A stretch of DNA of 64,000 bases, taken from a virus. Lineage: Duplodnaviria; Caudoviricetes. The DNA lies in the IMG/VR virus record IMGVR_UViG_3300024259_001623. One strand, 5' to 3'. Both the position numbers and the translations under genes were made by a program. Numbering within the stretch: the stretch's first letter is position 1; every line of letters starts with the position of its first letter. The notes under the pieces were generated by a model. The model saw nothing but the letters and a program-made list of their open reading frames with translations, was not told the origin of the DNA and did no database searches. This document shows positions 22,227 to 61,157 of this stretch, in pieces.

Positions 22227-22721
22227 CTATTCCAGAGAATAAATCGTTACGTCAAAATCTTCCCAAATTTCTTCAATTAAAATCTTAAGGAATTCGAAAT
22301 CCCCGCCAGCCAACCCGCTTCCAAAGGCAGGTGCATGAATCTCAGCCTTGAGAATCTTAGTAACTTCAGCTACATCTTTCATACATTCTACTAACGCAGC
22401 ATATCTAATGGGAGGACGACCATTCAAACCCCAACCCACTCCTTCCTGACCAATCATATTAGCAACAAAAATCTTCTCAGTACAATCAACAAATTGAACT
22501 TTACCTAATTCAAATGGAATACTATCATCATACCAGATAGAATCTGATTCTCCTTTTTTGTACCATTCTCTGTAACTTCTTTCTGCTACAGGATATGTAT
22601 GACCGAGAGGGACTACAAAACCCGCTCCCCAACCGCCGATTGAGTTTACGATGTGTGGAACCATTATAACTTTATCATCAGGTAATGCTTCAAACAAATC
22701 GCCTACAACGTACTTAATCAT
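22227..22721 (-). CDS. Macro domain protein (ADP-ribose binding/hydrolysis)
   Basis: YVVGDLF...HIVNSIGGWGAGF...ANMIGQ...PAFGSGLAGG. Confidence 0.85.
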   Translation of the reverse strand: MIKYVVGDLFEALPDDKVIMVPHIVNSIGGWGAGFVVPLGHTYPVAERSYREWYKKGESDSIWYDDSIPFELGKVQFVDCTEKIFVANMIGQEGVGWGLNGRPPIRYAALVECMKDVAEVTKILKAEIHAPAFGSGLAGGDFEFLKILIEEIWEDFDVTIYSLE

Positions 22722-30077: not shown

Positions 30078-30534
30078 AAGCATCATCTGTTTCATTATTA
30101 TTTTTATAAAGATATCTATCTATCATCCTTTTGATAGCATGATCTGGAACTCCATGCGTATTCCTTCCCTTCAAAAAATCCATATTCCATTTACCTTCTT
30201 CATCTTTCAAATCAGGACTCCAATCAGGTTCTATGTAAGATATATTATATCCAAAAGTTTTTCCTAACTTCAAATAACTATAAATTTCCCAAGCCTGAGT
30301 ATTTGTATTATCAACAACAATCAGAGGATATCCCTTACTCATCGCTGTTGCCGCTCTATCTTGATTCCACTTATGAGCTTGTCCTAACTTAGACGGATCG
30401 AACTTATACATGCCGCCCTGCTCAAAAAATTCATCAGAAGACAAAATCATACCTTGACTCCCAGCTACTTCTTTAGCCTTGGTAGACTTACCTGAACCAC
30501 TAACTCCCCGCATTATAATTAAACGTTTTTCCAT
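30043..30534 (-). CDS. AAA_33-type P-loop kinase (polynucleotide kinase/N4BP2-like)
   Basis: RGVSGSGKST; SSDEFF; VVDNTN; RNTHGVP. Confidence 0.85.
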   Translation of the reverse strand: MEKRLIIMRGVSGSGKSTKAKEVAGSQGMILSSDEFFEQGGMYKFDPSKLGQAHKWNQDRAATAMSKGYPLIVVDNTNTQAWEIYSYLKLGKTFGYNISYIEPDWSPDLKDEEGKWNMDFLKGRNTHGVPDHAIKRMIDRYLYKNNNETDDAFTKRVSDLVEN

Positions 30535-31297: not shown

Positions 31298-31906
31298 TTA
31301 CTTGATGAATTTGAAACTAATGCAATTGATCCCAGCATCTTGCATTTCTCTAATAGCATTTGCAGTACCAAACGCTTCAGCGTTAACTCCACGACAAGCA
31401 TCAGTTAAAACAAACGTTTTGAAGCCTTCCTTAACTGCATCCAAAGCAGTAAACTTAACGCAATAATCAGTAGCAAGACCACAGATATATACATCTGTTA
31501 CTCCCATTCCATGCAAGAATTCAGCGAGACCAGTAGGGTTCTTTCCATTGTTATCACAGAAACCGCTATAGCTGTCCACAGAAGCGTCCAGACCCTTCTG
31601 GAATACAGCCACGCCGTCGAGGTCCAAATCCTTGTGGAAATAGGCTCCTGGGCTATCCTGGACGCAATGATCAGGCCACATGATCTGAGGTTGTCCAGAC
31701 AATTCTCCCATCTCATAAGGATTAGCTCCATTATTAGAAGCAAAACTTCCATGATTCTGAGGATGCCAATCTTGAGTAGCAGTAACAAAATCGAACTCAT
31801 CAATAATGCTATTGATGATTGGGACAATCTCATCTCCACCTGTAACTGCCAAAAACCCGCCCGGACAAAAATCATTCTGCACATCAACAATAACCAAAGC
31901 CTTCAT
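31298..31906 (-). CDS. pncA: Nicotinamidase/pyrazinamidase
   Basis: LVIVDVQNDFCPGG-x-LAV, TQDWHP, WPDHCVQ, KG...YSGF, GLATDYCV. Confidence 0.95.
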   Translation of the reverse strand: MKALVIVDVQNDFCPGGFLAVTGGDEIVPIINSIIDEFDFVTATQDWHPQNHGSFASNNGANPYEMGELSGQPQIMWPDHCVQDSPGAYFHKDLDLDGVAVFQKGLDASVDSYSGFCDNNGKNPTGLAEFLHGMGVTDVYICGLATDYCVKFTALDAVKEGFKTFVLTDACRGVNAEAFGTANAIREMQDAGINCISFKFIK

Positions 31907-31994
31907 TACGATCTCCTTAAATAATTATTTATACAAAAACTCTACGACATTACAGGGAAAAATTATACCACTTTCTTTGCCACTTCCAACTTTA

Positions 31995-33968
31995 TTATGC
32001 CTCATTATATTTAATCATGTTCTTGACAACTCTTTTTAACTCTTTATATTTCGAGCTAAAATAATATGGCAATTGACTTTCTCGTCTGTCATATCCAAAT
32101 GCCGTTTTACTAGTAATAACATTAGGAGGCGACTGAACTCTCTTGAACACATTAATATTCATCAACTTAACAAACCACTCCAAGTCAACGATAAAAACTT
32201 GAGGATCATCAATATTCCATCTCTTAATCATCTCCAAGCTAATATTCAGATTATCAGCTAAAGTCCCATCGATATACCATCTCAAAATCTCTTCTACAGA
32301 TTTAATCCTATAATCCATAAATGCTTCTAACAAAGCACAATGATAACCGAACTTCATAGGATCAATCTGATCATTCTTCAACTCAGCAGAAGGTTTGATC
32401 TGATCATCGTTAAAAACATTCAACGCATCAGGAATCATCTCATTCGGAATAACTTCATCATTGAAAATTTTATCATTCATAAAACGAGCTAATTCAAATA
32501 CTTCTGTCTTTGTTAAATCTCCGATAGGAGCAATGGCTCCACCTACATCTCCATACAATGTAGCATAACCTAAAGCAGTCTCCAACTTATTACCATTATT
32601 AGTAAACAATGCATTCTTTCTAGCGGCAATACCAGCCAAAACTACAGAACCTCTAATCCTAGCTTGTTCATTTTCTACATTTAAATCACTCGCTTCGCTA
32701 CCAGAAGAATCCATAAACATTGAGGATACATCAAAAATATCATTAATAGGTATTACTGTATATTCAATACCCAACTTCTTCGCTATTTTAGCAGCAGCGT
32801 TTTTAGTTTTATCTGAATTATATTGAGTTGGCATATTGATAGCTGAAACTTTATCTTTTCCAACTGCCTTAACCAGCAACGCTGCAACAACAGCACTATC
32901 AACTCCACCAGACAATCCAATAACCCAATCATTATGGTCTTGTCTTCCCATAATGTCTTTAATATGTTGGATGCCTCTAATAATAGCTTGATATTTCTCT
33001 TTAATTACATTACGTTTTTCTCTTCTCTCTACATCATACTTGACATCAGAATCGATAACCAAAAGGTCTTCTTTATATGGTTCCCTAATCATAGAAAGAA
33101 TTTCACCTTCTCTACCATAATAAGTAGAGCCACCATCGAAGGTTACAACATTCTTTCCGTTATTCTGGGCACCAACGCAGTTAACATAAAAGAAAGGAAC
33201 CATAGCCTGACCATGCTTTTTAGCATTCTCTACCAAGTAATTAACAGCATTATCTCTGGCTTGATTCTTTCCATGAGTCCAAGGAGAAGCAGATATATTG
33301 ATAATAACATCTGCTCCATTTTTTAGTAATTCATTCGTAGGATTGATAGATTCGCCCCTATATCTATAATCTCTACACCACAAATCTTCGCATAATTCCA
33401 AGCCGATATTAACTTCTTTGCCCTCTATCTCTACACAAAAAGGCATAAAATAATCGTTTAATAAACCATAACCATATTCTTCATACAAATCTAATACAGA
33501 GAAAAAATATCTCTTATCGTCAAAAAATCTATAGTTTGGCAATAATGTTTTAGGTTGGATTCCGCTAGGAATAAATGAACTACTTCTGGATGTACATGAT
33601 CTTTTTACTTCTTTTTTATTTTGGTAGATATAAGCTGCATTATATTTTCTTTTCCTACCATCATGGTTCGGTTGCCAACCACGGGTCATTATGTTATGAG
33701 GAATAGATTCTTCCAGATATACATTGCCATAGATAACAATGATGCCGTCAGAAGCTTCTCTTAACTGTTTATTAAAAGACATGAGCCAACGACAATAATC
33801 ATCATCATTGTACTTGTCGCCTAAAAGATAACCACCAACACACATTTCTGGTGCAACTACTATATCACACCCCTTAGTTTTAGCCTTTTCTATAAAATTC
33901 AAAAGATTGCTAACATTTTTATAAGGGTTGCCAGGAACTACATCCATTTGAATTAATCCGACTTTCAT
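31995..33968 (-). CDS. nadE: Glutamine-dependent NAD+ synthetase
   Basis: Nitrilase domain (PEM, K-x-LLPNY...FDDKRY, ELCEDLW) fused to synthetase (GLSGGVDS, NEQARIR, NKLE-x-ALGY-x-TLYGD, PSAEL). Confidence 0.95.
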   Translation of the reverse strand: MKVGLIQMDVVPGNPYKNVSNLLNFIEKAKTKGCDIVVAPEMCVGGYLLGDKYNDDDYCRWLMSFNKQLREASDGIIVIYGNVYLEESIPHNIMTRGWQPNHDGRKRKYNAAYIYQNKKEVKRSCTSRSSSFIPSGIQPKTLLPNYRFFDDKRYFFSVLDLYEEYGYGLLNDYFMPFCVEIEGKEVNIGLELCEDLWCRDYRYRGESINPTNELLKNGADVIINISASPWTHGKNQARDNAVNYLVENAKKHGQAMVPFFYVNCVGAQNNGKNVVTFDGGSTYYGREGEILSMIREPYKEDLLVIDSDVKYDVERREKRNVIKEKYQAIIRGIQHIKDIMGRQDHNDWVIGLSGGVDSAVVAALLVKAVGKDKVSAINMPTQYNSDKTKNAAAKIAKKLGIEYTVIPINDIFDVSSMFMDSSGSEASDLNVENEQARIRGSVVLAGIAARKNALFTNNGNKLETALGYATLYGDVGGAIAPIGDLTKTEVFELARFMNDKIFNDEVIPNEMIPDALNVFNDDQIKPSAELKNDQIDPMKFGYHCALLEAFMDYRIKSVEEILRWYIDGTLADNLNISLEMIKRWNIDDPQVFIVDLEWFVKLMNINVFKRVQSPPNVITSKTAFGYDRRESQLPYYFSSKYKELKRVVKNMIKYNEA

Positions 33969-34732
33969 CTATTTTTCCTTTTTTTATAAATTTTACCACA
34001 TAATTCACAAAAGAAATCTTCATCATGATTGCTCTTCATTATATTAACTATCCTGTGAACCCATTGTACATTTCCTATTTCATAACCTTTAGAACTATCT
34101 ATTCTATCTAAAGATGCTGTTGTTTTTCCTTGTCTAAACTCTTTACTGTTTTTGGCAAAATACAAACTCAAACCTGACAATGCACATTTACGATTTTGTT
34201 TCAAAAATAAATCCCAAATATATTTTAAATCTATTTTCAATTCATGATCATTGTTTTTAGCATTATGTTTTATTCTACACCAAATAGAGCCAGATATGTC
34301 TCCACACCCAGACCAACCTTTACTTTCTTTTCCTTTACGATGTTTAGTTGTTTTTCCAATGGAACATCCACAACCTATATAATGTCCACTTTTTAACTTA
34401 CCAGCATCTACAACTTTTTTATTTCCACAATCACAACGACATAACCATCTGATTTTAATTTGACCACCTTTGGTTCTTCTCCGTCCATATAGTTTTAAGA
34501 CAGTTAGTTTTTTGAATTTTTGACCTGCTAAATCTTCTATATTATCTCGTTGTTTTTTAAGACAACCACAGCTTTTAGTATGTCCGCTTTTTACTCTATA
34601 TTCTTCCAGTATTACTATTTTGCCGCATTCGCAGTGGCATTTACATCTAGCCTTTCCATTCTTACCTTTTTCAGCTTCTTCAACAACAGTTAATTTAGCA
34701 AATTTTTTACCTATAACATTTTCTTTTTTCAT
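33965..34732 (-). CDS. Homing endonuclease (same family as 28986-30077)
   Basis: Two GKKF-x-KLTV...CxCxCG modules plus TASLDRIDSSKGY...WVH. Confidence 0.8.
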   Translation of the reverse strand: MKKENVIGKKFAKLTVVEEAEKGKNGKARCKCHCECGKIVILEEYRVKSGHTKSCGCLKKQRDNIEDLAGQKFKKLTVLKLYGRRRTKGGQIKIRWLCRCDCGNKKVVDAGKLKSGHYIGCGCSIGKTTKHRKGKESKGWSGCGDISGSIWCRIKHNAKNNDHELKIDLKYIWDLFLKQNRKCALSGLSLYFAKNSKEFRQGKTTASLDRIDSSKGYEIGNVQWVHRIVNIMKSNHDEDFFCELCGKIYKKRKNR

Positions 34733-34892
34733 AAGATTCTCCTGAATAATATTTCTGCTTTTATATTCAAGATCACCTATAAAATATCCTTTTAAAAAAT
34801 ATTCCCGTTAACTGTTTAGAGGTTATTTTACTGGTTTCTCCGCTATAAGTAGAAAAATTATCCGCTGGTTCAGGGACAGGACGGAGGCCAGA

Positions 34893-35405
34893 CTACTTCT
34901 TAGGTTTGATTCTTTTTTCTATATCTGCAAGAATCAATTTAGGATCGCATTCTGGGCAATCATCGAATTGAATATCTTCTAAATCATATCCCTTAAATAG
35001 TTTAGGCCAACGTTTTTTGATATTAACAGCATCAGAACTTTTCTGAGGATTAGAACCATAATCATTACCATAGGCTTTTTTAGTATCTGTATTCCAAGTA
35101 TTACCATCTTTAGGAATGTAGCCTCTCAGGTTTTTGCCATCCCAATATATAATAAAGAAAACTGGCATTTCCCAATCACCACCGGCAACCCAACCCCAAT
35201 ACGGCAGACCATGACTAGTTACATTATAACCAGTTATATCTTTACAACCATTATAGCCGCTTCCCTTAACATATTCATAATTCTCAAAATCAAATTCGAC
35301 CTTAGATATATCTTTCTGTATCTTTTCTGGAAAATCCCATACATTAATATTATCAGTCTTTTTCATTAAAAATGGTAAACTATGACGCTCAAATTTTCTA
35401 GCCAT
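34893..35405 (-). CDS. Hypothetical protein
   Basis: GGDWEMPVFFIIYWDG...GYIP-x-x-GN motif. Confidence 0.7.
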   Translation of the reverse strand: MARKFERHSLPFLMKKTDNINVWDFPEKIQKDISKVEFDFENYEYVKGSGYNGCKDITGYNVTSHGLPYWGWVAGGDWEMPVFFIIYWDGKNLRGYIPKDGNTWNTDTKKAYGNDYGSNPQKSSDAVNIKKRWPKLFKGYDLEDIQFDDCPECDPKLILADIEKRIKPKK

Positions 35406-35416
35406 TTATTGTCTCC

Positions 35417-35998
35417 TTAAATCCTACCAGACATTTTCAAATACATCCAACATTTAGCCCCAAGATGTGAGCCTTTGTCAATCTCTTGTTGAATTTGACC
35501 TTTTTCTAATGCCAGAACTTCGATATCTTCATCTGCTTCATTGAATTCAGTTGAGATTTCTCCATAAGCTTCCACGAAAACGCATACAACAGATTCATCT
35601 GACAGTCCAGCAGAATTACATAGCGGAGGACTAACATCTAAAACTCTTACCACTCCAAGACCAGTTTCTTCCTTAAACTCTCTAATAGCAGCTTGCCCTG
35701 GAGTTTCTCCTTCATCAATCAAACCGGCAGGGAATCCCAACTCATAACCATTCAGAGGAACCCTGAACTGCTTAATCAGAACAATTTTTTCATGTTCTGT
35801 TTGAACACTTTGAAAATATGTATCTTGTCCTAAAGTTCCAATGATTACTACGGCATCGGGCTTTGTCTTTGCCTCTACATTTTGATTCTTTCTGGAAGCA
35901 AAAATCCATCTTCCTTGACAATCCTTATGAGTATACTTAGACTCATAAAGATTTATGAATTTCTCATCAGTAATTTTTGTTGTTGTTGTAACTCTCAT
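35417..35998 (-). CDS. Nudix hydrolase, ADP-ribose pyrophosphatase-like
   Basis: KQFRVP...FPAGLIDEGE...AAIREFKEETG; SAGLSDE. Confidence 0.88.
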   Translation of the reverse strand: MRVTTTTKITDEKFINLYESKYTHKDCQGRWIFASRKNQNVEAKTKPDAVVIIGTLGQDTYFQSVQTEHEKIVLIKQFRVPLNGYELGFPAGLIDEGETPGQAAIREFKEETGLGVVRVLDVSPPLCNSAGLSDESVVCVFVEAYGEISTEFNEADEDIEVLALEKGQIQQEIDKGSHLGAKCWMYLKMSGRI

Positions 35999-37218
35999 TA
36001 TTCATTCTCGCATAAAGGTTTATTCTGGAACATCCACTTGGCGACCTTAACAGCATCTTTATCGCCCGTTTCTTTTCCATCATCATCACTCAACTTAACA
36101 ACTTCAATTCCATTAACAGAACGAAGTTTAATAACCATATTCAAAGACTTACTGCCTTCAAAATCATTGGTAAAATTAGTTCCTATACCGAAAGAACATC
36201 TAATACCAATTTCTTTGCAGTAATGTTCTATTTCAATTGCTTTATCTGGATTCAATCCATCGCTGAAAATAATAACCTTACTCATAGGATCAATATTATT
36301 TTTCTTATAATGATAAACTATTTTATCAGCAAATTTAAAAGGATCACCGCTATCATGCCTAACGCCGTCATACAGTTTAGATAGCCTTAGATTGAAGTTT
36401 CCCAAAAACGCATCGGTACCAAAAGTATCAGTCAATGCAATACCAAGATCAGCATTATAAACTCTAACCCAATTTTGCAAAGCAAAATAGTTTGCATTTC
36501 TTAATCCTTCAAGAGCAGAACATCCCATGAACCATTCATGTGCCATCGTCCCGATAGGCTTAATACCATACTTTCTAGCAAAATAAACATTGCTTGTTCC
36601 CATAAATCTCTTGTTCCATTGGGTTAATCCCTGAGCATAAATAGCTTCATTAATAAAATTATCATGGAAATAATGACTTCTTCTTCGCCTAGTCCCAAAG
36701 TCAGCAAAAGTAACATTATTCTGTACTAACTTAGATACTTTTGCGTTAGCCTTGCGGCAGAAATCTGTATAATCTTTTTCCAAATCAGTTTCTACTGTAT
36801 TAAAGTAAATTTCGCTAATTGCTGCCATCAACGGGACTTCCCATAGAATCGTACTATGCCAAGGTCCGCTGACAGTAATAGACAAATTATTGTCATCATC
36901 AAGATCAATTTCAACCTCATCAGGATTGAACCTATAATCTTTAAGGTACTTAAGATAGGACTTTGTGAAGTAAGGACATGTAGCCTCTAAATATTCATAT
37001 TCACCGCTGGTCAACCTTAACGATGGCAAACCATAATTGATATAAGCTTCTAGCTCTGCCATGAACTTGACATTAAATCTTTGATCGCCTCTATTAGTAA
37101 ATCTGTACGTAACTTCTGCATCAGGGAACAGTTCCAAAACTGCTTGCTGCATTGACAGCTTGTAAGTATCTGTGTCTAATAGACTTACAGCTCTAATAAT
37201 TCTTTCATCGTTTTTCAC
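35998..37218 (-). CDS. pncB: Nicotinate phosphoribosyltransferase
   Basis: [51 protein letters not shown]-x-GK. Confidence 0.95.
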
Positions 37219-37262
37219 AATATTATTCCTTTTAAATATTTAGAATATTTCTTCTTTAAACT

Positions 37263-37937
37263 CTACAACCTTTCGGTCAACCATCCTTTATGATTTTTTC
37301 TTTCTCCATTTGCAACTTTTATCATATTTGATGGAGTTAAATTATGTTCTTCACAAAAAACAGATAGACCATTTTCTGTTATAAATATATTTCCATCTGG
37401 ATCAGTCACTTTATATTTTTTAATATTTATTTTTCCTTTTGAAGTTTTACTACATTTAATTCTTGTTTCCGGCTTTGTAATTCTTTTTTTTCTAGCAATA
37501 CTTAAATTCTTTTTATGTTTTTTAGAGAACTTCATTCCTTTTCTAGCTTCACTCATTTTTTTACGAGATTCTATTGAACGTTTTTGGCCTCTTCTTTTTT
37601 CAGCAGCTTTTTTTTGTATTTCCGGAGTTAAACCTTTTCCTCCTTCTCCACCGTTTGCTATGTTGCACATTTTAAGACCTTCTTGTCTAAATTTTGCAAT
37701 ATAGAATATTTCTCTGTCATCTACCTCTTTATCATTAAGGTCATTTTCCAAAACTATAAAATCAAAATCTCTACCCTCTTTCCATAATTTTCTTATTTTA
37801 TTTTGTAAATGATATCTACGTTTATAGGATTTAGCATCAGACCTATGATGCCTCATTCTATTATAAGTATTATTAGTTTTTCCAACATAAAAAATTAAAC
37901 GAGTATCAATTTCTATAAGTGCGTATATTGTATGCAT
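37263..37937 (-). CDS. GIY-YIG homing endonuclease with NUMOD3-like repeats
   Basis: TIYAL...FYVGKT...R...H; REIFYI; NIANGGEG. Confidence 0.88.
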   Translation of the reverse strand: MHTIYALIEIDTRLIFYVGKTNNTYNRMRHHRSDAKSYKRRYHLQNKIRKLWKEGRDFDFIVLENDLNDKEVDDREIFYIAKFRQEGLKMCNIANGGEGGKGLTPEIQKKAAEKRRGQKRSIESRKKMSEARKGMKFSKKHKKNLSIARKKRITKPETRIKCSKTSKGKINIKKYKVTDPDGNIFITENGLSVFCEEHNLTPSNMIKVANGERKNHKGWLTERL

Positions 37938-38042
37938 ATTTTTTTAATCCTTATATAAGTTATTATCTAACTTATATATCGAATGTTTTATATGCTTTCC
38001 TTTATTTAAGATTAAAATTTATATAAATCATTGTCCGAAAAT

Positions 38043-38306
38043 TTATTCTTCCTTTTCTGGGTTAGCTAAGAGTAAAATCAAATCTCTAGCGGCTTGTTTA
38101 TCTCCACCACGGGCTTTTTGGGTTAACTCTTTTAATTTTGCGTCATATTCAGAAGTGACATTAGGATAAAAAATTTCCAATTGCTCTATAGCCCACTTCA
38201 CAGCTTGTATCGTTTTATCATCTGTAGAAGGCTTTTCGACAAATGCCTTGAGCAATGTCATGTTCTTATTTTCCATCTCTGCCACCTTATTCAAAAAATG
38301 CTGCAA
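38043..38306 (-). CDS. Hypothetical protein
   Basis: ORF track. Confidence 0.5.
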   Translation of the reverse strand: MQHFLNKVAEMENKNMTLLKAFVEKPSTDDKTIQAVKWAIEQLEIFYPNVTSEYDAKLKELTQKARGGDKQAARDLILLLANPEKEE

Positions 38307-38360
38307 AAAATATTATAATCTTCTTGTGAAGAACCACAATATTCCTTGCAGCATCAGGGA

Positions 38361-38377
38361 AAACCGCATTTTTGCGG
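38361..38377 (-). terminator. Intrinsic terminator
   Basis: CCGCA-AAAA-TGCGG-TTTT. Confidence 0.55.
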
Positions 38378-38379
38378 GA

Positions 38380-38664
38380 TTAAACGACCTTATAAGTCTG
38401 TCCGTTAAGCTTCAACTGTCTGATTCCCGAAACATTGACATTACGGAAGTTCTTCTTCGTCATGTCAAAAACAGTCATCAGTCCAGTTCCCTTGCGACTC
38501 TTCTTAGTTCCCTTAACTCCCTTACTGACTCCAGTTCGGCAGTTCATAGTTCGCAACTCGTTATTGCTTCGCTTGATAAAACTAACGGTCATAAACTTAC
38601 CCTTAGAATTCTGCATCTTTGTTACAGCTTCTTGAACAGTAATCTTCTTGCTTCTCGTACTCAT
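38380..38664 (-). CDS. Small basic SH3/DUF2693-like protein
   Basis: FMTVSFIKR...LRTM...TVFD...FRNVN. Confidence 0.55.
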   Translation of the reverse strand: MSTRSKKITVQEAVTKMQNSKGKFMTVSFIKRSNNELRTMNCRTGVSKGVKGTKKSRKGTGLMTVFDMTKKNFRNVNVSGIRQLKLNGQTYKVV

Positions 38665-38690
38665 CTTTTTCTCCTTGTTAAGATTTTAAT

Positions 38691-39617
38691 TTACCATGTT
38701 TTATATGCGTCTTTAATTATTTCCAAACTTTCTGAACTTCTTAAACCATAATTGGAACAAGACAAATCAACCATTTGTTTTCCATCGCAATAAGAAGACG
38801 GTCCTGCTTTGCATTCTACAGCATCAATATACATCGAAAATTTACCATCTTCTGTATCGAACAAACGATCAGGAATATCCGCCTCAAGTATCTGCTCTTC
38901 ATAAGTATAAGCAAGAACAGTATCTATTGACAATCTAGGAAGCTTTTCGCTTTCCTTGAGTTCTTTACAAATCTTAATCCAATTGTCGTTGTTTTCTGGA
39001 GTATAACTCGATCCTCTACCACTTTCTTTATATCCTAGCAGAGTAACTCCATAATATAGTTCATGGGCTTTTTCCAGTATCTCTTTTAAATCATGCTCCG
39101 AAGCAGAACCCATAACATAATGCAACTGCTTACAGAGTCTTTTACCCCAATAAGGATTGCTCTCGATACCATTGAACACCATGCATGATTCTAAAAGCTC
39201 AATATCTTCAACGCATTTAACTGAAAAAGCAAATGAACCACAGTTTTCTATGATGCCGGGCCATTTTCTAGCGTCCCTCATCCAATCCATAGATTTTGTA
39301 GTAAAATTAGGAACAACTCCTTGTTTCCTAAAAGCTTTCAGAATATCAACAAAATCTGGATGGCTAGTTGGTTCTCCACCACCTATTGCAACTTCAAATA
39401 CTCTCATTTCCTGCAATATATAAGCTATGTTTTCTATTGTATTTAAATCTGCATGACTTCCTTTAGTATCAGAATTCTGATAACAATTATGAACAAGAAT
39501 ATTATTTGCAAAATAATTATGTTCTGGAGTAGTTCCGATATTATAAACTTTACCTTTATAAGGGATCTTTTTAACAGATTTAACTTTTATTATGAACTTC
39601 GCCTTGTTAACTTTCAT
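38691..39617 (-). CDS. Split-intein C-fragment (44 aa) fused to C-terminal part of a radical SAM protein
   Basis: ...VYNI...HNYFANNILVHN/CYQ then AIGGGEPT-x-HPDF, VPNFTT. Confidence 0.9.
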   Translation of the reverse strand: MKVNKAKFIIKVKSVKKIPYKGKVYNIGTTPEHNYFANNILVHNCYQNSDTKGSHADLNTIENIAYILQEMRVFEVAIGGGEPTSHPDFVDILKAFRKQGVVPNFTTKSMDWMRDARKWPGIIENCGSFAFSVKCVEDIELLESCMVFNGIESNPYWGKRLCKQLHYVMGSASEHDLKEILEKAHELYYGVTLLGYKESGRGSSYTPENNDNWIKICKELKESEKLPRLSIDTVLAYTYEEQILEADIPDRLFDTEDGKFSMYIDAVECKAGPSSYCDGKQMVDLSCSNYGLRSSESLEIIKDAYKTW

Positions 39618-39636
39618 CTTTTTAATCCTTCTTTCC

Positions 39637-40596
39637 TTAATGTCTTTGAAAATCTACTTTTTTATGACAACTAACGCAATAAGTAATCCCTATTGCATTT
39701 TTATGTTCTTCTATAATTTGATCATTCACCCGTTCAAACTCTTCATAACTTAACAAATCCATTATTCTTCCATTTAATATCTTTTCTACAATATTTTGAA
39801 AAGTTGGACTTATATGATGAACTTCTAGACGACCTCCAACTGATCCACATTTACAACAGGTAAAATCATCTCTTTCTAAAATAGGTCTTATCCATGCCTT
39901 ATACAACCTAGATCGTATAACTTGACACCTATCCCTATTTCCTTTCCATAGATGATGATTTTTACCCCTGATATAAACAATTTCACCACTTTTAACTCTT
40001 CTTTTAATTGTTGCTTTTACTTTTGCGACTACATCTTTACGCTTCATAGGATTCTTTTCACCCTTCATCTTGTCAGACGCAAAACTAGAAAATTCTTCTG
40101 GAGTCATTCTTGTTACAGGCGTTTTAATTTTTTCATAATCATCGATATTAACTTCTTTTTTCATAAAAGTGGACGCCATCTTTGCCCTGACTTCTTTTCT
40201 CTTCATTGGATTATTTTGTTTCATTCTTTGCGAAGATTTTTTGTTATTTCCTTTTTTACAGATATCACATACATTGATATCAAATTCAGATAAAGTTTTT
40301 GTTTTCTTTTTTACAACTGTTTTTATAAATTTATTACACTTGCGACATTTCAAATCAATATTAATCTCTTTAAAATTATGAATCTTAATGTTTTTACAAT
40401 TACCACATAAAACTTCGTTTCTTTTACCTATGAATTCTTTATTACAATATTTACATTTTTTTGTTTTATTTTTTTTATGATATTGATCATTTCTTTTTTG
40501 TTTTTTACATTTTTCAGAACAATATTTTCCATTAGTTTTGGCAATAAATTGTTTTTTACATTTTCCGCAATATGCTATATGTCCCATAATGAACAC
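39637..40596 (-). CDS. HNH endonuclease between split-intein halves
   Basis: ILERDDFTCCKCG...LEVHH...ITYCVSCHK; NPMKR repeats; N-terminal Zn fingers. Confidence 0.85.
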   Translation of the reverse strand: MFIMGHIAYCGKCKKQFIAKTNGKYCSEKCKKQKRNDQYHKKNKTKKCKYCNKEFIGKRNEVLCGNCKNIKIHNFKEINIDLKCRKCNKFIKTVVKKKTKTLSEFDINVCDICKKGNNKKSSQRMKQNNPMKRKEVRAKMASTFMKKEVNIDDYEKIKTPVTRMTPEEFSSFASDKMKGEKNPMKRKDVVAKVKATIKRRVKSGEIVYIRGKNHHLWKGNRDRCQVIRSRLYKAWIRPILERDDFTCCKCGSVGGRLEVHHISPTFQNIVEKILNGRIMDLLSYEEFERVNDQIIEEHKNAIGITYCVSCHKKVDFQRH

Positions 40597-40650
40597 TCCT
40601 TTAAACGAATATATGTATTTTATACATTCGCTAACTTAAAAAAGTATCCT

Positions 40651-41574
40651 TCAAAATTTTAAAATATGATCATTTTCTTCAATATTTTCTGCTTTTATCC
40701 AGCCACGATTTAAAGTATATACTTCATGATTCGGAGTCAATTTAATTTCTGAGCCATCTTCTGCTTCAATAACTATTAAATCACCTTCATAATCTCTTTC
40801 AAAGATTTGTTCTGTAACTAATTCAACTCTTTTTTCTTCTTTATTATTATATCCATAAACTATATCATTAATCTTGATATCTTTTATAGCAACTTCTCCA
40901 TCTGGAGTTAAGATCATAGTCTCTGGGACTAAACAGAATTCGCAACCCTTGTCGCACCAATTGGTTATCTTCAAATCAACCAATTCAGGCGATGAAGATT
41001 TTGTATATTCTTCTTTAGTATCTTCAAAAGAGAACTTTACTTTCCCGCCAGTTTTTCTATTAAAAATAACCCACCAGATTCCATCTTTTCTTGCGATAAC
41101 ATCATCGTTGTGAAAATCCGTTTCCAATGGAAGTCTAAATGCTTGACCTTGATCAGTTAATGGATGACTCTCATCAGAATTATCATTACCACCTAAGATA
41201 ACCAAATCTTCTCTTAGCATATATTTTTTGAAATCTGCGAAAAATTCCTCATCAAAATAATCGCCTTTCCAATTAGTAGGAAGAGCTAAAACACTTTGAT
41301 GGTCAATATAAGCAGTTGTCGATTCGATATCAAGACCTGTAACTTCCTTTACAACCAATCTGGCGACTTTATCATTAAAAATATCTCTTAAATTATTGAA
41401 TAACGTAAGAGACAGATAATCTCCTTTAGATTCTTCAGAAGCAGCAGTAAAAAATCCCCATCCGAAATCTCCATCCGTAGCCATGTGATCGTCAGATATT
41501 CCATCTAAGAAAATCAACGAATGACTTGAGCTACTGTTAGTCGCTAAACCCAATCTTACTTTTGCTATATTCAT
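40651..41574 (-). CDS. N-terminal part of radical SAM protein fused to split-intein N-fragment (94 aa)
   Basis: ATNSSSSHS domain; ...ITNWCDKGCEF/CLVPETMILTPDG...LTPNH (intein blocks A and B). Confidence 0.9.
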   Translation of the reverse strand: MNIAKVRLGLATNSSSSHSLIFLDGISDDHMATDGDFGWGFFTAASEESKGDYLSLTLFNNLRDIFNDKVARLVVKEVTGLDIESTTAYIDHQSVLALPTNWKGDYFDEEFFADFKKYMLREDLVILGGNDNSDESHPLTDQGQAFRLPLETDFHNDDVIARKDGIWWVIFNRKTGGKVKFSFEDTKEEYTKSSSPELVDLKITNWCDKGCEFCLVPETMILTPDGEVAIKDIKINDIVYGYNNKEEKRVELVTEQIFERDYEGDLIVIEAEDGSEIKLTPNHEVYTLNRGWIKAENIEENDHILKF

Positions 41575-42092
41575 TATTCTACCTTTATATCAACTAAAAA
41601 CAGGTTATTAATCCTGAATGTCGGAGGACCATCAGTAGGATTCCGCCAAACAGCAATATAATTTTCATACGTATCAATTTCAAACTTAGAGAACAAAGAA
41701 TTAAACGGCAAATACTTCAAACATGTCTCTCCGATCAAAATCGGTTTATTTAACGTTATTTTAGTCCCTTCAATTAAAACATCACTTTTGTCTACATGGC
41801 AACATTTCAAAAATGAAGATAATTGGACTTTTCCTTGTTCTCTATAGATTTGTGTATGCCGTTTCTTTGGTACAGAAACTTCATTAGAATCGTCAGACGA
41901 ATCAGAGGACTCATCTTCATCTTTTTCATCTTTTTCATCTTCATAAGAAACATATTCGCAGATATAGAAATTACCGTCTTGTCTTTTAACGGAATTTTTT
42001 CTTTGCCTTCCTCTGCCTTTAGATTCTCGTCTTAATTCGTTTTCGTTTTGATCAACCCAAATGTATTCTGCCATCGTTCTTCCTTTCGTCAT
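41574..42092 (-). CDS. Hypothetical protein
   Basis: ORF track; acidic linker. Confidence 0.6.
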   Translation of the reverse strand: MTKGRTMAEYIWVDQNENELRRESKGRGRQRKNSVKRQDGNFYICEYVSYEDEKDEKDEDESSDSSDDSNEVSVPKKRHTQIYREQGKVQLSSFLKCCHVDKSDVLIEGTKITLNKPILIGETCLKYLPFNSLFSKFEIDTYENYIAVWRNPTDGPPTFRINNLFLVDIKVE

Positions 42093-42141
42093 AATTATCC
42101 GTAGATAAGAAATTTTTTGAATCTGTTCAGGGAAAATGCAG

Positions 42142-42177
42142 ACAACCCCCCGCTTTATTTCTAAAACGGGGGATTGT
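42142..42177 (-). terminator. GC-rich terminator hairpin
   Basis: ACAATCCCCCG / CGGGGGGTTGT. Confidence 0.65.
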
Positions 42178-42218
42178 TACTTTCCTAAACTTAATTCTTT
42201 TCTTCGTTTGTTACGGCT

Positions 42219-42785
42219 TTAGATATCTAGCGATGTGACTTTGTTTCCTGCTACTTCTGCTACCGAACCGCTTGTTTCTTCTTTAGCAGTATTAAGACCC
42301 AAAAGTCTGTCTTTCATCTCTTCCAAAGTAGGCAACTCTGCTACTTGATCAGCCAGCTTATTCCAAATATCCGTAGGAATAGGCTTGTCAACAACCTTAA
42401 CGCCTTCGGCATTGTATTCTGTATTCAAACCAGAACCAGTCGAAGTCAACTTAACGAAGCTTAACATATTAAGATTACTAACGGTCTTTTGGACGCTTGC
42501 GATGCCCTTTGCAGCCATCTGACCACAGTTACAGACCTTTACCTTCTTTGTTCCTTCATCATCAATGAAAAGTCCATAAAACAAATAACTTGTTCTAGCC
42601 TTTTCACCTGCTACTGGAGGGCGACTTCTGTTCAGTTCGCTGTCAAATACATTTGCATAAGCAACGATTTCGTTGGAGGGGAGAAAAGTTTGAGGAAGGT
42701 TTTTCGCGCTCAAGAAAACTAAATCATCGTTATTTCCCGAACTCTTTTGATCACCGATACTGTTCCAATCTACTGTTGATGACAT
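42219..42785 (-). CDS. Hypothetical protein, possible gp32-like ssDNA-binding protein
   Basis: KLTSTGSGLNTEY resembles the G-x-G-x-x-T-x-Y motif of phage SSBs; weak. Confidence 0.45.
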   Translation of the reverse strand: MSSTVDWNSIGDQKSSGNNDDLVFLSAKNLPQTFLPSNEIVAYANVFDSELNRSRPPVAGEKARTSYLFYGLFIDDEGTKKVKVCNCGQMAAKGIASVQKTVSNLNMLSFVKLTSTGSGLNTEYNAEGVKVVDKPIPTDIWNKLADQVAELPTLEEMKDRLLGLNTAKEETSGSVAEVAGNKVTSLDI

Positions 42786-42930
42786 TTTTGACTCCTATGG
42801 GTATTATACCCGATTAATGGAATTGGCCGTATGCCTTTTCCTAGCGTCTTATGGCTTTATGACTGCTATAAAACAATGTCCTTAGCCATAATACTACTTC
42901 GTCAAAAATGCACTTTCTCCTTTAACTTTT

Positions 42931-43350
42931 TTACTTTTCTGAATATTTTTTTATTAAATCACAAATATTATTTCGTACCTCGCATATATCAATTATACCA
43001 TTAATGATATTTAGTTGTTTAGTATCTAAAGTAGTTATGACCAAAAACTGATGAAGAAATTGTGATTGTGCGTATTGTTCATTTTTTGAATCTAATTTCA
43101 TCAAATATTGAACCCTGGCTTGAGGATCAAATAATATAAGTTTTTCTCTTAAATAATTAGTTGCGAATGCTAAATCCGCACCAAATCTCATTGTAATAAA
43201 ATATAACATATTATGCCTCCTTCTTTTCGAAGAATCTTGCTCCTTTACCGCAAAATCCCATAACTCGACATTTAAAATATCCGCCCTGTCTTTGAAGAAC
43301 ACAATTTTTAAACGTAAGTTCTCCACCAGTTGTAGAGTCTGGTCTACCAC
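42931..43350 (-). CDS. Hypothetical protein (true start probably near 43209)
   Basis: ORF track; 5' part overlaps next gene. Confidence 0.5.
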   Translation of the reverse strand: MVDQTLQLVENLRLKIVFFKDRADILNVELWDFAVKEQDSSKRRRHNMLYFITMRFGADLAFATNYLREKLILFDPQARVQYLMKLDSKNEQYAQSQFLHQFLVITTLDTKQLNIINGIIDICEVRNNICDLIKKYSEK

Positions 43351-43423
43351 ATTCCAAACCTAAACTCTTAAAACGAGGATCAGATTCGGAATGTTGACAT
43401 TCTGTACATAATTTCTTGCTCAT
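43211..43423 (-). CDS. Small Cys-rich protein
   Basis: GGAG RBS; CTEC, CGKGARFFE. Confidence 0.55.
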   Translation of the reverse strand: MSKKLCTECQHSESDPRFKSLGLECGRPDSTTGGELTFKNCVLQRQGGYFKCRVMGFCGKGARFFEKKEA

Positions 43424-43435
43424 CTTAGTTCTCCT

Positions 43436-44053
43436 TTAATAACCTCTATACAATCTATTTTTATTAATATAATCAAAAACTTTTTCATCTAAAAGACGCA
43501 AAATATTATCATTACCATGAATTTTTTCTCTTACTTCTGTAGAAGATACTTCCATAATTGGAGTTTTATCTCCCTCATCATTTAAAAAGATGTGCGGAGG
43601 CTTCAAAAACCAATTTACTCCTGGCTTCATCTCTATTCCCTTCCTTGGAATAACAACAAATCTGATCATTTTCTCAAGATATTCATAATTTACCCATTTA
43701 TCAAAATTGTTAGCATTGTCCTGTCCGATTATAAAAGAAAAATCAAACTTATGCTTTGCCCAATCTTCATTTTGCAACCTTTTGACTAAATTATATGTCT
43801 CCCCGCTAAGACAATTTACTATTTCATAATCAGATACTTTAATCCTACCATCAACCTGAGCAGCTAACTTACACATCTCCACTCTTTTATCAGGAGAAAC
43901 CATTGACTTGCCGTACATGTGTTCATAGGCAGGCATCAACCAAACTTGTTGAGTAATTTTCTTATTAAGAATATATTTTGCAACATCTATATGTCCTTTA
44001 GTAACAGGGTTAAAAGCCCCTCCTAATAATCCTATTTTAATCTTTTTTCTCAT
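43436..44053 (-). CDS. nadD: Nicotinate-nucleotide adenylyltransferase
   Basis: IGLLGGAFNPVTKGH (HIGH-like), R-x-x-M, IIGQDN, VSSTEVR, V-x-x-YI...LY. Confidence 0.9.
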   Translation of the reverse strand: MRKKIKIGLLGGAFNPVTKGHIDVAKYILNKKITQQVWLMPAYEHMYGKSMVSPDKRVEMCKLAAQVDGRIKVSDYEIVNCLSGETYNLVKRLQNEDWAKHKFDFSFIIGQDNANNFDKWVNYEYLEKMIRFVVIPRKGIEMKPGVNWFLKPPHIFLNDEGDKTPIMEVSSTEVREKIHGNDNILRLLDEKVFDYINKNRLYRGY

Positions 44054-44777
44054 GTTTCCCTAAATTAGACTCACTAATTTTCCTTTTCCATTCAGATGAG
44101 ATTTCTCTACCTTTTAATTTTTCACTAATTTTTAAACGAGTTTCTTTTGTTTGTTTTTTTCCTAAACGAGATTTGCCTATTTTAGCTTTGTGTTCTTCTG
44201 ATAATTGCCTGCCTTTTAATGACTGACTTATTTTCTCTTTAGTAGAAGAATTTAATTTTCTTCCTTTCAAAGATTTAGATATTTTATCTTTCCATTCCTG
44301 AGTTATTATCCTACCCTTCAATGCTTCGCTTCTTTTTTCTAAAGTTTCTGGACTAATTATTCTACCGATTTGCCTTTCTCTATTTTGTTTTTTAAATTCT
44401 TCTGATCTTTTTAGCCCCTTAGTTGCTTTACTAATTTTATCCCTGATTTCTTCTTTCAAAGGATGATTAGTAAAATTATCTCCTCCATTTCCACCTTCTG
44501 AGATATTATAACCATTTTTTATTGTATCTAACTGCTTTATATAAAATTTTTCTTGAGTATTTAAATTTACTTCATTTTTGATACCATCTTCTATGATTTC
44601 CCAAGAAAATTTATCAAAACCATATTTTCTTATAGCATTATAAAATTTACTTTTATATCCACGTCCATTATTTTCCGCATTCCATTTGTGTTCATATTTA
44701 CGTTTATCAAGGGATTTTGCACATTTACCAATATAAATTTTATTATTAATAACGTTCGTTGCCTTATAAATAAACAT
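44037..44777 (-). CDS. GIY-YIG homing endonuclease with NUMOD3 repeats
   Basis: FIYKATN...IYIGK...R...H; GYNI; repeated K-I-S-x-S-L-K-G-R. Confidence 0.9.
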   Translation of the reverse strand: MFIYKATNVINNKIYIGKCAKSLDKRKYEHKWNAENNGRGYKSKFYNAIRKYGFDKFSWEIIEDGIKNEVNLNTQEKFYIKQLDTIKNGYNISEGGNGGDNFTNHPLKEEIRDKISKATKGLKRSEEFKKQNRERQIGRIISPETLEKRSEALKGRIITQEWKDKISKSLKGRKLNSSTKEKISQSLKGRQLSEEHKAKIGKSRLGKKQTKETRLKISEKLKGREISSEWKRKISESNLGKHEKKD

Positions 44778-52468: not shown

Positions 52469-52867
52469 TTACTTCTCCTGATATTCTTCTACAAACGACA
52501 ATTTTATATCTAACCAATCCTTAACATTCAAAAAAGACGGGATATCTCTTTCGGTGGCCTGATTTAGCATATTTCTAGTACCTCTGCTATTTTCTATTTC
52601 GGTGGTATAACCCACGACATAATCTGGTTCACCTTCATCCAACATTTGTTTATTTCTTATTGGACCAGCAGATTTTCCATATTTTTTCCAATCAGCAGGA
52701 TATTTTTCGACTATTAATCCTCTTTCGGTGGCACAATTCCTAGCTAAACTATCTGCTCCTTTTGCTTCGCCTTCAATAATTGTGCTGTCATCAGGCAGGG
52801 AATCAATAAACTTTTTTATTGTTTCGGTGTCTGAGAAATTTCTACTTCCGCATATTAATATCTTCAT
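52469..52867 (-). CDS. DUF2493/YspA-like SLOG-family protein
   Basis: ILICGSRNF...GEAKGAD...ADWKKYGKSAGPIRN-x-x-M...GTRNM. Confidence 0.85.
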   Translation of the reverse strand: MKILICGSRNFSDTETIKKFIDSLPDDSTIIEGEAKGADSLARNCATERGLIVEKYPADWKKYGKSAGPIRNKQMLDEGEPDYVVGYTTEIENSRGTRNMLNQATERDIPSFLNVKDWLDIKLSFVEEYQEK

Positions 52868-52868
52868 T

Positions 52869-58997: not shown

Positions 58998-61157
58998 CTA
59001 ATTTTCTATTAACGAAATCAGTTCGTCAATATCTTCTATAATCATTATCTCTTCCCCTTGTCCTTTCAGTTCAAAAGCCTTATCTTTCTTCTTACCGGGA
59101 TCATCTCCCACAATAACAAAATTTGTCTTCTTGCTTACAGAACTACTAATCTTGCCACCTTCATTTTCAATCTGGTCATACCAATAAGTCTTGCCATCTG
59201 CAAAAGAACCAGTAAAGCAGAACTTCTTACCAGTAAACTTACCAGTCTTGGGAAGTTCTAATTCAACGTAATTTAGAATATCATCCAACATAAATCTATT
59301 ACGAGCAAAGAACTCTACCAATACCTTAGCTGTCTTATTGCCGATATCTTGAACCTTTTCTAATGCATCTACAGGCATATTTCTGATTGTAGTTAAATCT
59401 CCATTGTAATGAGAGATTAAAGCTCTAGCAGTTCCCTTGCCCGCACCAGGAATACCTAATGCAGATAAGAATTTTTCTACAGGCACAACTTTCTTTTTCC
59501 CATGAATCTTCATTATCTTTTTCAGTAACAAATCATTATCTTTGATCTTTTCTGGATTTTTAACCATGTGAATTCTAGCAACGACTAACAATGCAGAACG
59601 TTCTGTAATCCCAGCCTTCTTCAAATCATCTAACGTTATTCTGTAAAAATCTGGAATTGTTTTAACCAAATTATTTTCAACCAATTTGTTAACCATGCTT
59701 TCGGCTATTCCCTTGACCTCAATAGAAGAAAGATAATTAACTAGATTGCCAACATTTTTAGCAGGACAATCTGTATTATAACAGAACAATTCAGAAGCAT
59801 TGGAACTGGTTACCATCTCCAATTCGCCATTGCAAGAGCCGCATTTATCAGGAGTAACTACGTTATTAGCCTTTTTGACGACACCTATCATCTTAGGAAT
59901 AATCTTTCCGCTCTTGATAAGCTTGAACTGAGTTCCAATGCCTACGCCTTCATTTATAATGATACCGACATTGTGAGCAGTACACTGACTAACCATAGTC
60001 CCATCTAACTTAACTGGTTTAAATTGCATAACTGGGGTTACTTTGCCAGTTCTGCCTGTCTGCCAAATAATACTTTCGACAGTAGGAACAACTACTTTCT
60101 CTGAGAATTTCCAAGCCAATTTGCCTCTTGGATTACCATTAGCTCTATCTCCATGACGACCATGTTGTTCGGAATCTTCAAGATTGTTTACCGATATTAC
60201 AACTCCATCAATTTCATAATCCAATGCATCTAGGGTCGATTCAACAAAAGCTAAATCTGAATATTTAAAAGGTCTTGCTTGGACGAAAGGAACTCCCAGA
60301 ATTTGATTACACCACTTGGCTCTTTCGATTTCGGTTTTATATGGAGCTTTTTCTAAACCTTCTATAGAATAAGCAGTAAAACTGATCTTCCTATGTTTTG
60401 TAATAGTAGGATCATCGAATTGACGAATGCTGCCAGCAGTATAGTTTCTCGGGTTAGCAGGTTCCTTTTTGATCTTGGCAGGATTTATACCCTTCTTGAA
60501 ATCTTCAACAATCTTTTCAAAAACAGAAATCTTACATTCCAATTCCCCACGAATGGAACATGTAATCTTCTTTGGCAATACTTCAAGAATACCTTTGACA
60601 TGCTTGGCTTGTTCTGTAACGTCTTCCCCATTAACTCCATCTCTGGGTCTTAGACCAGCCTTAGTCAATTTGCCATCTTTATAATACAGAGAAATTGCTA
60701 CTCCATCACGTTTAAGAGATTGGCAGAAGAAAGGAGTTCCATCATTATCCTTATCCCCCTTATAACCAAGTTCATCAGAACATTTTTTGAGCCAATTAGC
60801 AAGAATGTCATTCTTCATGCTCAATGTTCCATTGGCTTTAGAGATGGAAGTCATGGGAGGGTTATGAACAACTTTTTCGACATCAGTATCTATATTAGAT
60901 GCAGTTACACCATCAAATGTCTTGGAATTAGGCTTTAAAGCCGCCAGTTCTCTTCTAAGAGCGTCATATTGATCATTCGATACTTGATCTCCATCCTCAA
61001 TAGTTTGCCCCCTATACTCTTTATCTTCTGTAAAAGTAAAGGTTATAGGGGCAATACATGTATCACCGTCCTCAAAAAGAGAATCAAGAACTGCGATTAT
61101 TGACTCTAATTCTTCTGCCGTGTTCGTTGGTACATCATTTTTCATATCTTTCTCCAT
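58998..61157 (-). CDS. ligA: NAD-dependent DNA ligase
   Basis: YD-x-L-x-x-EL, KRDG adenylation motif, RGE, NPRN-x-x-AGS-x-RQ, EIDGVV, GRTGKVTP, Zn finger, HhH, BRCT. Confidence 0.95.
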   Translation of the reverse strand: MEKDMKNDVPTNTAEELESIIAVLDSLFEDGDTCIAPITFTFTEDKEYRGQTIEDGDQVSNDQYDALRRELAALKPNSKTFDGVTASNIDTDVEKVVHNPPMTSISKANGTLSMKNDILANWLKKCSDELGYKGDKDNDGTPFFCQSLKRDGVAISLYYKDGKLTKAGLRPRDGVNGEDVTEQAKHVKGILEVLPKKITCSIRGELECKISVFEKIVEDFKKGINPAKIKKEPANPRNYTAGSIRQFDDPTITKHRKISFTAYSIEGLEKAPYKTEIERAKWCNQILGVPFVQARPFKYSDLAFVESTLDALDYEIDGVVISVNNLEDSEQHGRHGDRANGNPRGKLAWKFSEKVVVPTVESIIWQTGRTGKVTPVMQFKPVKLDGTMVSQCTAHNVGIIINEGVGIGTQFKLIKSGKIIPKMIGVVKKANNVVTPDKCGSCNGELEMVTSSNASELFCYNTDCPAKNVGNLVNYLSSIEVKGIAESMVNKLVENNLVKTIPDFYRITLDDLKKAGITERSALLVVARIHMVKNPEKIKDNDLLLKKIMKIHGKKKVVPVEKFLSALGIPGAGKGTARALISHYNGDLTTIRNMPVDALEKVQDIGNKTAKVLVEFFARNRFMLDDILNYVELELPKTGKFTGKKFCFTGSFADGKTYWYDQIENEGGKISSSVSKKTNFVIVGDDPGKKKDKAFELKGQGEEIMIIEDIDELISLIEN

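Follow-up and report, generated by a model that had tools for sequence, protein, structure and literature searches.

Genes for a probable deamidating NAD+ salvage pathway, with a coupled Nudix gene, in a marine huge phage

Depletion of nicotinamide adenine dinucleotide (NAD+) is among the commonest outputs of bacterial anti-phage systems. To date, experiments have established three phage routes that restore NAD+, all of them non-deamidating. The locus described here lies at positions 31298–44053 of IMG/VR record IMGVR_UViG_3300024259_001623, a stretch of 64,000 nucleotides (hereafter the window) from a ~434-kb uncultivated marine huge phage, whose PncB-carrying contig, recovered from seawater metagenomes, measures 434,625 bp. 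It comprises pncA, nadE, a Nudix hydrolase gene, pncB, and nadD. An original prediction, made from the sequence alone, had assigned these genes to a four-step NAD+ salvage pathway accompanied by an ADP-ribose (ADPR) hydrolase coupled to pncB, and had proposed that they reconstitute NAD+ after its cleavage by host defences. All five gene identities and their catalytic motifs were borne out on the minus strand of this interval.

Five NAD genes and their catalytic motifs

Protein families were called with Pfam, the curated cut-offs of NCBIfam, and PHROGs, and residues were assigned by alignment to solved structures and with a motif script. PncA exceeds the cut-off of the nicotinamidase equivalog NF008623 (242.8 bits against 174) and matches the Acinetobacter nicotinamidase 2wt9 with an E-value of 8e-55. 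In alignments to 2wt9 and 1ilw, it keeps the catalytic triad D8/K104/C149 and the metal ligands D46/H48/H52/H80, residues with counterparts in the Mycobacterium tuberculosis numbering. PncB carries both NAPRTase domains (PF04095, 1e-67; PF17767, 3.6e-37), scores above the cut-offs of TIGR01514 (446.9 vs. 269.55) and NF003704 (474.2 vs. 379), and matches yeast NPT1 (1vlp, E 1e-91), alignment to which places the phosphorylatable histidine H227 in an AHEW motif. NadD belongs to PF01467 (1.3e-17), passes TIGR00482 by a narrow margin (124.2 vs. 112.45), and matches 8aih (E 9.5e-20). Its motifs are GGAFNPVTKGH at residue 11, with TKGH at 18–21, and SSTEVR at residue 170. The co-occurrence of this protein with NadE and PncB argues for nicotinate mononucleotide (NaMN) as its substrate.

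NadE combines a synthetase domain (PF02540, 1.6e-47) with an N-terminal CN_hydrolase domain (PF00795, 2.2e-9), and is above the cut-off of TIGR00552 at the domain level (141.6 vs. 63.65 bits). It matches 5kha/4f4h (E 4e-44), its glutaminase triad E41/K140/C193 aligns, and its PP-loop, 353-SGGVDS, is intact. The full-length equivalog NF010588 is not reached (307.6 against a cut-off of 479), but cellular NAD(+) synthases of 645–690 aa align with NadE along 100% of its length at 50–58% identity, which indicates a longer subfamily outside the coverage of that model rather than an aberrant protein.

The Nudix protein (PF00293, 1.9e-14) has a complete Nudix box (GX5EX7REUXEEXGU), GLIDEGETPGQAAIREFKEETGL, at residues 92–114. 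Its similarity to human NUDT5 (E 8e-19, residues 10–174) takes in the N-terminal domain as well as the QFR(V/P)P substrate motif, and NudE and ADPR pyrophosphatases rank next among its PDB matches. The pncB stop codon overlaps the Nudix start as TAATG; judging by this overlap, the Nudix gene is translationally coupled to pncB, as had been predicted.

Taken as a set, these genes very probably encode a deamidating pathway that runs from nicotinamide through nicotinate, NaMN, and nicotinate adenine dinucleotide (NaAD) to NAD+. The assignment to the deamidated route is firm, since PncB and NadE are useful only there. PncA would deamidate nicotinamide to nicotinate; PncB would join nicotinate to phosphoribosyl pyrophosphate (PRPP), with ATP coupling through His227, and so yield NaMN; NadD would adenylate NaMN to NaAD; and the glutamine-dependent NadE would amidate NaAD to NAD+.

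Table 1. Positions of the NAD genes and of other features in the window
Feature	Position	Strand	Length (aa)	Predicted reaction, match, or remark
pncA, nicotinamidase	31298..31906	minus	202	nicotinamide → nicotinate + NH3
nadE, glutamine-dependent NAD+ synthetase	31995..33968	minus	657	NaAD → NAD+
Nudix gene, NUDT5-like ADP-sugar/ADP-ribose pyrophosphatase	35417..35998	minus	193	ADPR → AMP + ribose-5-phosphate (putative substrate)
pncB, nicotinate phosphoribosyltransferase	35998..37218	minus	406	nicotinate + PRPP (+ATP) → NaMN; GTG start
nadD, nicotinate-mononucleotide adenylyltransferase	43436..44053	minus	205	NaMN + ATP → NaAD
HNH homing endonuclease	33965..34732	minus	255	phrog_374, 1.6e-33; neighbours in Atlas are viral HNH clusters
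orf170, orphan	34893..35405	minus	170	between the Nudix and HNH genes; conserved on contigs L005–L008
GIY-YIG homing endonuclease	37263..37937	minus		upstream of pncB; PF01541, 1.1e-9
GIY-YIG/NUMOD3 homing endonuclease	44037..44777	minus		PF07460, 2.9e-12; PF01541, 5.6e-4
Terminator-like hairpin	38377-38364	minus		
Two-box motif, exact	38336-38360	minus		TCCCTGA-N12-ATATTGT
Two-box motif, all copies	38336, 12488, 17588, 18901, 28833, 61188	minus		TCCCTG-N13-WWTTGT
Fractured radical-SAM gene	38691-41574	minus		between the pncB and nadD regions
Radical-SAM N-terminal open reading frame	40651-41574			ends in an intein N-fragment
Free-standing HNH-type open reading frame	39637-40596			follows the radical-SAM N-part
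Intein C-fragment and remaining radical-SAM	38691-39617			other reading frame
AAA_33 kinase gene	30043-30534	minus		polynucleotide-kinase-like (phrog_2071/505)
Macrodomain protein	22227..22721	minus	164	E 1.1e-33 to BT1257 (2fg1/2afc); 1.9e-24 to Streptomyces macrodomain 5e3b
YAcAr (SLOG-family) domain open reading frame	about 52469-52906	minus		domain match
Second, generic Nudix gene	57762-58238	minus		near the NAD-dependent ligase
NAD-dependent DNA ligase LigA	58998..61157	minus	719	phrog_3869, 6.2e-125; Pfam DNA_ligase_aden/OB/HHH/BRCT

Recurrence in other phages and possible roles

PncB is rare in phages, being present in 13 of 50,697 phage records, and two of the sources proved to be host DNA. 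The PncB of 'Acinetobacter phage MD-2021a' (CAKLQH020000008.1) stands in a bacterial chromosome context (thiL, nusB, ribH, phoBR), and that of Moraxella phage Mcat17 (KR093641.1) lies outside attR. In exact-sequence look-ups, the NAD gene block of the window was found unchanged on at least 18 metagenomic contigs, of which three exceed 200 kb, from several seawater samples. Given this rarity and this repeated recovery, the set is not a chance association. No RNA data are listed for the 5.9-kb block, nor for pncB taken by itself.

When the MD-2021a contigs and the Mcat17 flank are left out, six distinct substantial phage genomes carry PncB. Five of the six also carry an isochorismatase/PncA-like protein, an adenylyltransferase, and NadE, mostly clustered, which points to selection for the whole set. 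In LR756501 (735 kb), a PncA-like protein (134.8 bits), a NadR-type adenylyltransferase, a short NadE, and PncB are encoded within 8 kb at 422–431 kb, with Prs 18 kb away (449161-450069); this phage has been said to carry nadD only (PMC11662467). In Atu_ph07 (MF403008, 490 kb), a 6-kb stretch encodes a weak PncA-like protein, an archaeal-type NMNAT, PncB, and a protein annotated as an ADPR pyrophosphatase, and NadE lies elsewhere. Phosso (PV764938, 469 kb) has NadE, PncB, a MutT-like Nudix protein, NMNAT, and an isochorismatase-family hydrolase within 6 kb. The four families lie within 5 kb on the 117-kb gut scaffold MT835470, and are weaker and dispersed in LR756500 (462 kb). The sixth genome, LR756511 (595 kb), encodes PncB and NadE and gave no isochorismatase match. 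Two IMG/VR fragments also hold MazG-NadD, PncA, and PncB together.

The types of adenylyltransferase and NadE vary among the PncB-bearing phages. The closest relatives of the window PncB (57–63% identity) are encoded on further contigs that look viral, where a macrodomain gene and a gene for a short NadE are neighbours. Among named organisms, the nearest relatives are found in diverse bacteria for PncA (~60%), in Methanosarcinales for PncB (54–56%), and in Woesearchaeota, Asgard archaea, and Maribacter for NadE (50–58%). Since these relatives belong to different lineages, the set was not copied as one host operon. Judged by enzyme types and identity levels, phage NAD sets look to have been assembled more than once.

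What, then, would the set do for the phage? We lean, with somewhat better than even confidence, towards a module that rebuilds NAD+ from nicotinamide, supplies NAD users, and blunts NADase defence. Beyond the four salvage steps, the coupled Nudix enzyme would most likely split free ADPR into AMP and ribose-5-phosphate and thereby remove ADPR, and the ribose-5-phosphate would feed the host PRPP synthetase, which would in turn supply PncB. NAD+ would be kept available in the infected cell for the phage ligase and other NAD users, and this would in turn weaken defences of the host that split NAD+ into nicotinamide and ADPR. The NAD-dependent ligase that the original prediction attributed to the phage is indeed encoded in the window and, from its family and domain matches, is a phage consumer of NAD+.

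Several observations weigh against this reading. No PRPP synthetase (Prs family) is encoded in the window or within ~10 kb past either end, which confirms the predicted absence of prs from the window and extends it into the flanks. Phage genes there thus leave the ADPR branch unclosed, and its completion would fall to the host or to a gene in another part of the genome. Prs is encoded by only two of five comparable huge phages. Consequently, the earlier proposal that the set recycles both cleavage products stands for nicotinamide, the enzymes of that branch being present, but not for ADPR within the window, where ribose-5-phosphate would need a PRPP synthetase. The Nudix protein is below all NCBIfam cut-offs (TIGR00052, 30.1 vs. 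79.55; NudE, 46.4 vs. 169; NudF, 31.6 vs. 248), so that ADPR is a putative substrate suggested by the similarity to NUDT5. Finally, with four steps and a cost in both ATP and glutamine, the route may not keep pace with a fast NADase.

A further-reaching version is put forward tentatively, the balance being somewhat against it. It sees the set as a fourth kind of NAD+ reconstitution in phages, a deamidating one, that guards huge phages from NADase abortive infection and bypasses nicotinamide mononucleotide (NMN) and Nampt, and that unrelated huge phages repeatedly put together from genes of diverse origin, with flanking homing endonucleases possibly spreading it. If true, a four-step route from nicotinamide would constitute a further class of counter-defence, and it would explain why PncB in phages nearly always travels with genes for a PncA-like protein, an adenylyltransferase, and NadE.

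The strongest competitor is plain metabolic augmentation, whereby the NAD+ pool is raised or kept up, in a host without nicotinamide salvage or one that down-regulates it, for heavy NAD+ use by the phage (ligase, ADP-ribosylating enzymes) and with no specific tie to NADase defence. The phage ligase speaks for such a role. Moreover, several NAD+ synthesis routes are common in huge phages, where they complement host pathways (PMC11662467; PMC7824862), and infection by the jumbo phage PA5oct raises expression of the host's pncA-pncB1-nadE operon in no defence context (PMC7318152). Supply and counter-defence are not separable by sequence, and the two roles are not mutually exclusive. However, the nicotinamide entry and the coupled ADPR hydrolase match exactly both products of NADase effectors, and supply with no defence tie appears rather unlikely to be the better account.

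Nicotinamide inhibits NAD-consuming enzymes such as sirtuins, poly(ADP-ribose) polymerases (PARPs), and ADP-ribosyltransferases. This counts for an explanation in which PncA and the Nudix enzyme would mainly remove nicotinamide and ADPR or ADPR-derived signals, with the downstream enzymes tidying up. Nudix and macrodomain genes accompany the set, and phage enzymes that degrade ADPR-based immune signals have been described (PMC13232231). Such clearance is nevertheless improbable: PncB, NadD, and NadE would be unnecessary for it, yet they stand alongside PncA-like genes in five of the six PncB-bearing phages, and the Nudix protein resembles ADP-sugar hydrolases, not the known enzymes that degrade cyclic ADPR.

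Phage origin and gene organisation

The window DNA is phage DNA, in agreement with the original prediction. The NAD region is flanked by rIIA (phrog_612, 8.7e-76), rIIB (phrog_609, 5.1e-71), and a helicase PHROG match. Fifteen tRNA genes lie at 3.3–14.3 kb, homing endonuclease genes surround the NAD genes, and LigA adds a further PHROG match. For both rIIA and rIIB, the closest counterparts are in the huge phage LR756500, whose gene order matches that of the window: rIIA, rIIB, about 8 kb, and PncB. GC content is uniform across the window (0.32–0.35), and nearly all genes are co-oriented, the minus-strand NAD genes among them. In the five NAD genes, GC, GC at third codon positions (GC3), and codon usage are inside the range of the other phage genes (codon-usage r = 0.95), which makes contamination or very recent capture unlikely. 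The window DNA was found in many seawater metagenomes, and many independent contigs, the longest of 434,625 bp, share the same gene arrangement. A Megablast search of the NAD region against the 50,697 phage records gave no match, and nor did a search of IMG/VR with an exact 40-mer. That the stretch is instead host chromosome, a chimeric assembly, or decayed cargo with no phage function, as the two host-derived database sources of PncB and the lack of any virion structural gene within the window might suggest, has next to no probability against these features, the LR756500 synteny, and the intactness of every catalytic motif.

Transcription units of the NAD genes can be predicted from sequence signals. 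Upstream of pncA is a promoter-like sequence of its own (TTGGAA-16-TATAAT) with a strong AAGGAG ribosome-binding site. The terminator-like hairpin is directly followed by an exact two-box motif. In the co-oriented form TCCCTG-N13-WWTTGT, this motif has six copies in the window against 1.27 expected, and is probably a phage-specific promoter. From it, the GIY-YIG gene, pncB, the Nudix gene, orf170, the HNH gene, and nadE would make up a candidate single transcription unit, with nadD in a separate upstream unit.

A free-standing homing endonuclease gene lies directly upstream of nadE (HNH), of pncB (GIY-YIG), and of nadD (GIY-YIG/NUMOD3), and two of the three overlap the start of the enzyme gene: the HNH gene overlaps the nadE start as ATGA, and the GIY-YIG/NUMOD3 gene overlaps the nadD start by 17 nt. 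The HNH gene is a mobile element and no pathway enzyme. Such endonucleases could co-convert NAD genes between related co-infecting phages. Candidates for hidden pathway genes (Prs, PncC, or a transporter) at orf170 and at 41574-42092, 42219-42785, and 42931-43350 were rejected, with no match in Pfam, NCBIfam, or PHROGs; for orf170, the Atlas model is of low confidence and gave no usable match. Between the pncB and nadD regions, a radical-SAM gene is fractured, identically so on contigs L005–L007. Its N-terminal part terminates with the N-fragment of an intein, which sits right at the CX3CX2C motif; next, beyond in-frame stops, comes a free-standing HNH-type open reading frame, and then the intein C-fragment with the remaining radical-SAM sequence. 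This looks like a split-intein 'fractured gene' arrangement.

Further genes of the window with an NAD or ADPR theme are LigA, the macrodomain gene, the second, generic Nudix gene, and the YAcAr/SLOG-domain open reading frame. The macrodomain gene, which escapes Pfam, is 9 kb from pncA and is a further ADP-ribose-handling gene. The AAA_33 gene lies ~0.8 kb downstream of pncA, and a 37%-identical homologue (contig L001, 18378-18893) lies ~2 kb from NadE on an unrelated PncB-bearing viral contig. As a nicotinamide riboside kinase (RNK), the AAA_33 protein was rejected, since it is polynucleotide-kinase-like and has no NadR/RNK or PDB match; an AAA_28 P-loop open reading frame past the window end was likewise rejected, having no NadR or RNK match. 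That open reading frame is part of a dense block of nucleotide and tRNA metabolism beyond the window end (contig L012, 1-10004), together with genes for GMP reductase (NF003470, 474.8 bits), a Thg1-like tRNA-His guanylyltransferase, a queuosine-salvage protein, Dam methylase, and dCMP deaminase.

Comparison with known NAD+ systems

The original prediction had called the route distinct. This holds with respect to NARP1, NARP2, the NadV/NatV system of KVP40, and NARP3, but routes of this kind have already been described from sequence by Li et al. 2024 (PMC11662467), and the four families also occur together in LR756501, LR756500, Atu_ph07, Phosso, and MT835470. The set in the window is thus new in comparison with the experimentally proven pathways and not in comparison with those described from sequence.

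Experimental proof as phage NAD+ restoration exists for NARP1, NARP2 (10.1101/2024.02.11.579819), and NARP3, which consists of PnuC and NadR (Sci Adv 2026, PMC13464706); the NARP1/NARP2 preprint does not mention nicotinate, NadE, or PncA. Like NARP2 and KVP40 NadV-NatV (Nampt and Nmnat; Lee et al. 2017, as cited in PMC11662467), the window set is phage-encoded, would make NAD+ from nicotinamide and PRPP, and has a Nudix gene, as is often the case there. However, NARP2 is a two-step amidated route via NMN, whereas the window set would take four steps via nicotinate, NaMN, and NaAD, with a glutamine-dependent last amidation. Like NARP3, it would be a phage-encoded means of NAD+ restoration, but NARP3 imports nicotinamide riboside and converts it via NMN. 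Nampt, the transferase of NARP2, was not seen in the window or its ~10-kb flanks, nor are NadR and PnuC among the Pfam-labelled genes there, and the sole NAPRTase-family protein of the window is of the PncB type.

Like NARP1 (Adps and Namat), the window set would deal with both products of NADase, ADPR and nicotinamide. In NARP1, ADPR is pyrophosphorylated and then linked to nicotinamide directly, whereas the window route would hydrolyse ADPR. Namat and PncB share a broad phosphoribosyltransferase fold. Nevertheless, the window transferase is a bona fide PncB, and its equivalog-level score (TIGR01514), together with the lack of a Prs-like Adps nearby, rules it out as the Namat of NARP1.

Bacterial pncA-pncB-nadD-nadE salvage operons regulated by NrtR (Rodionov et al. 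2008, PMC2330246) contain the same four enzymes and a Nudix-family gene. Unlike NrtR, the window Nudix protein is short (193 aa), has an intact catalytic box, lacks a C-terminal winged-helix domain, and matches no NrtR model, so that it is an enzyme and an NrtR-type regulator is ruled out.

Atu_ph07 and Phosso resemble the window in having PncB, NadE, an isochorismatase-family hydrolase, an adenylyltransferase, and a Nudix protein or ADPR pyrophosphatase, mostly within 6 kb. Their adenylyltransferases are of the archaeal/NadM type, unlike the window NadD; their PncA-like proteins, at 21.7 and 33.7 bits, fall well short of the nicotinamidase cut-off; and their PncB proteins are only ~30% identical to that of the window. 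In addition, the NadE of Phosso is a short ammonia-dependent form, whereas that of the window is glutamine-dependent.

Iyer et al. 2021 described only a Nampt/NadM/NadR system in jumbo phages, which was already tied to NADase effectors (PMC7824862). Li et al. 2024 (Microbiome, PMC11662467) reported 174 'NAD-jumbo phages' in which a salvage or Preiss-Handler pathway is complete, including a pncB-nadD-nadE cluster in Kuafu_71, mentioned phage pncA, and proposed counter-defence against Sir2-type NAD+ depletion. With its 434,625-bp contig, the window phage fits their Preiss-Handler definition (>200 kb with pncB, nadD, and nadE), and in both cases the genes lie near one another. In both cases, too, the roles proposed from sequence are autonomous synthesis of NAD+ to serve the NAD users of the phage and, possibly, counter-defence. 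Unlike those clusters, the window adds a strong PncA, which would make nicotinamide instead of nicotinate the entry, and a pncB-coupled NUDT5-like ADPR Nudix gene; it comes from seawater, not gut, and its genes are interleaved with three homing endonuclease genes. Collectively, the locus is a clean marine huge-phage case of a type of NAD+ synthesis cluster that has been reported before, here with PncA and a coupled putative ADPR hydrolase in addition, and is probably functional. Alone, it adds an instance and no new principle. Among the phages compared, it is the most canonical version, with a true PncA, a NadD-type adenylyltransferase, and a glutamine-dependent NadE, and this canonical enzyme set makes it a good source of genes for testing a possible fourth route of NAD+ reconstitution.

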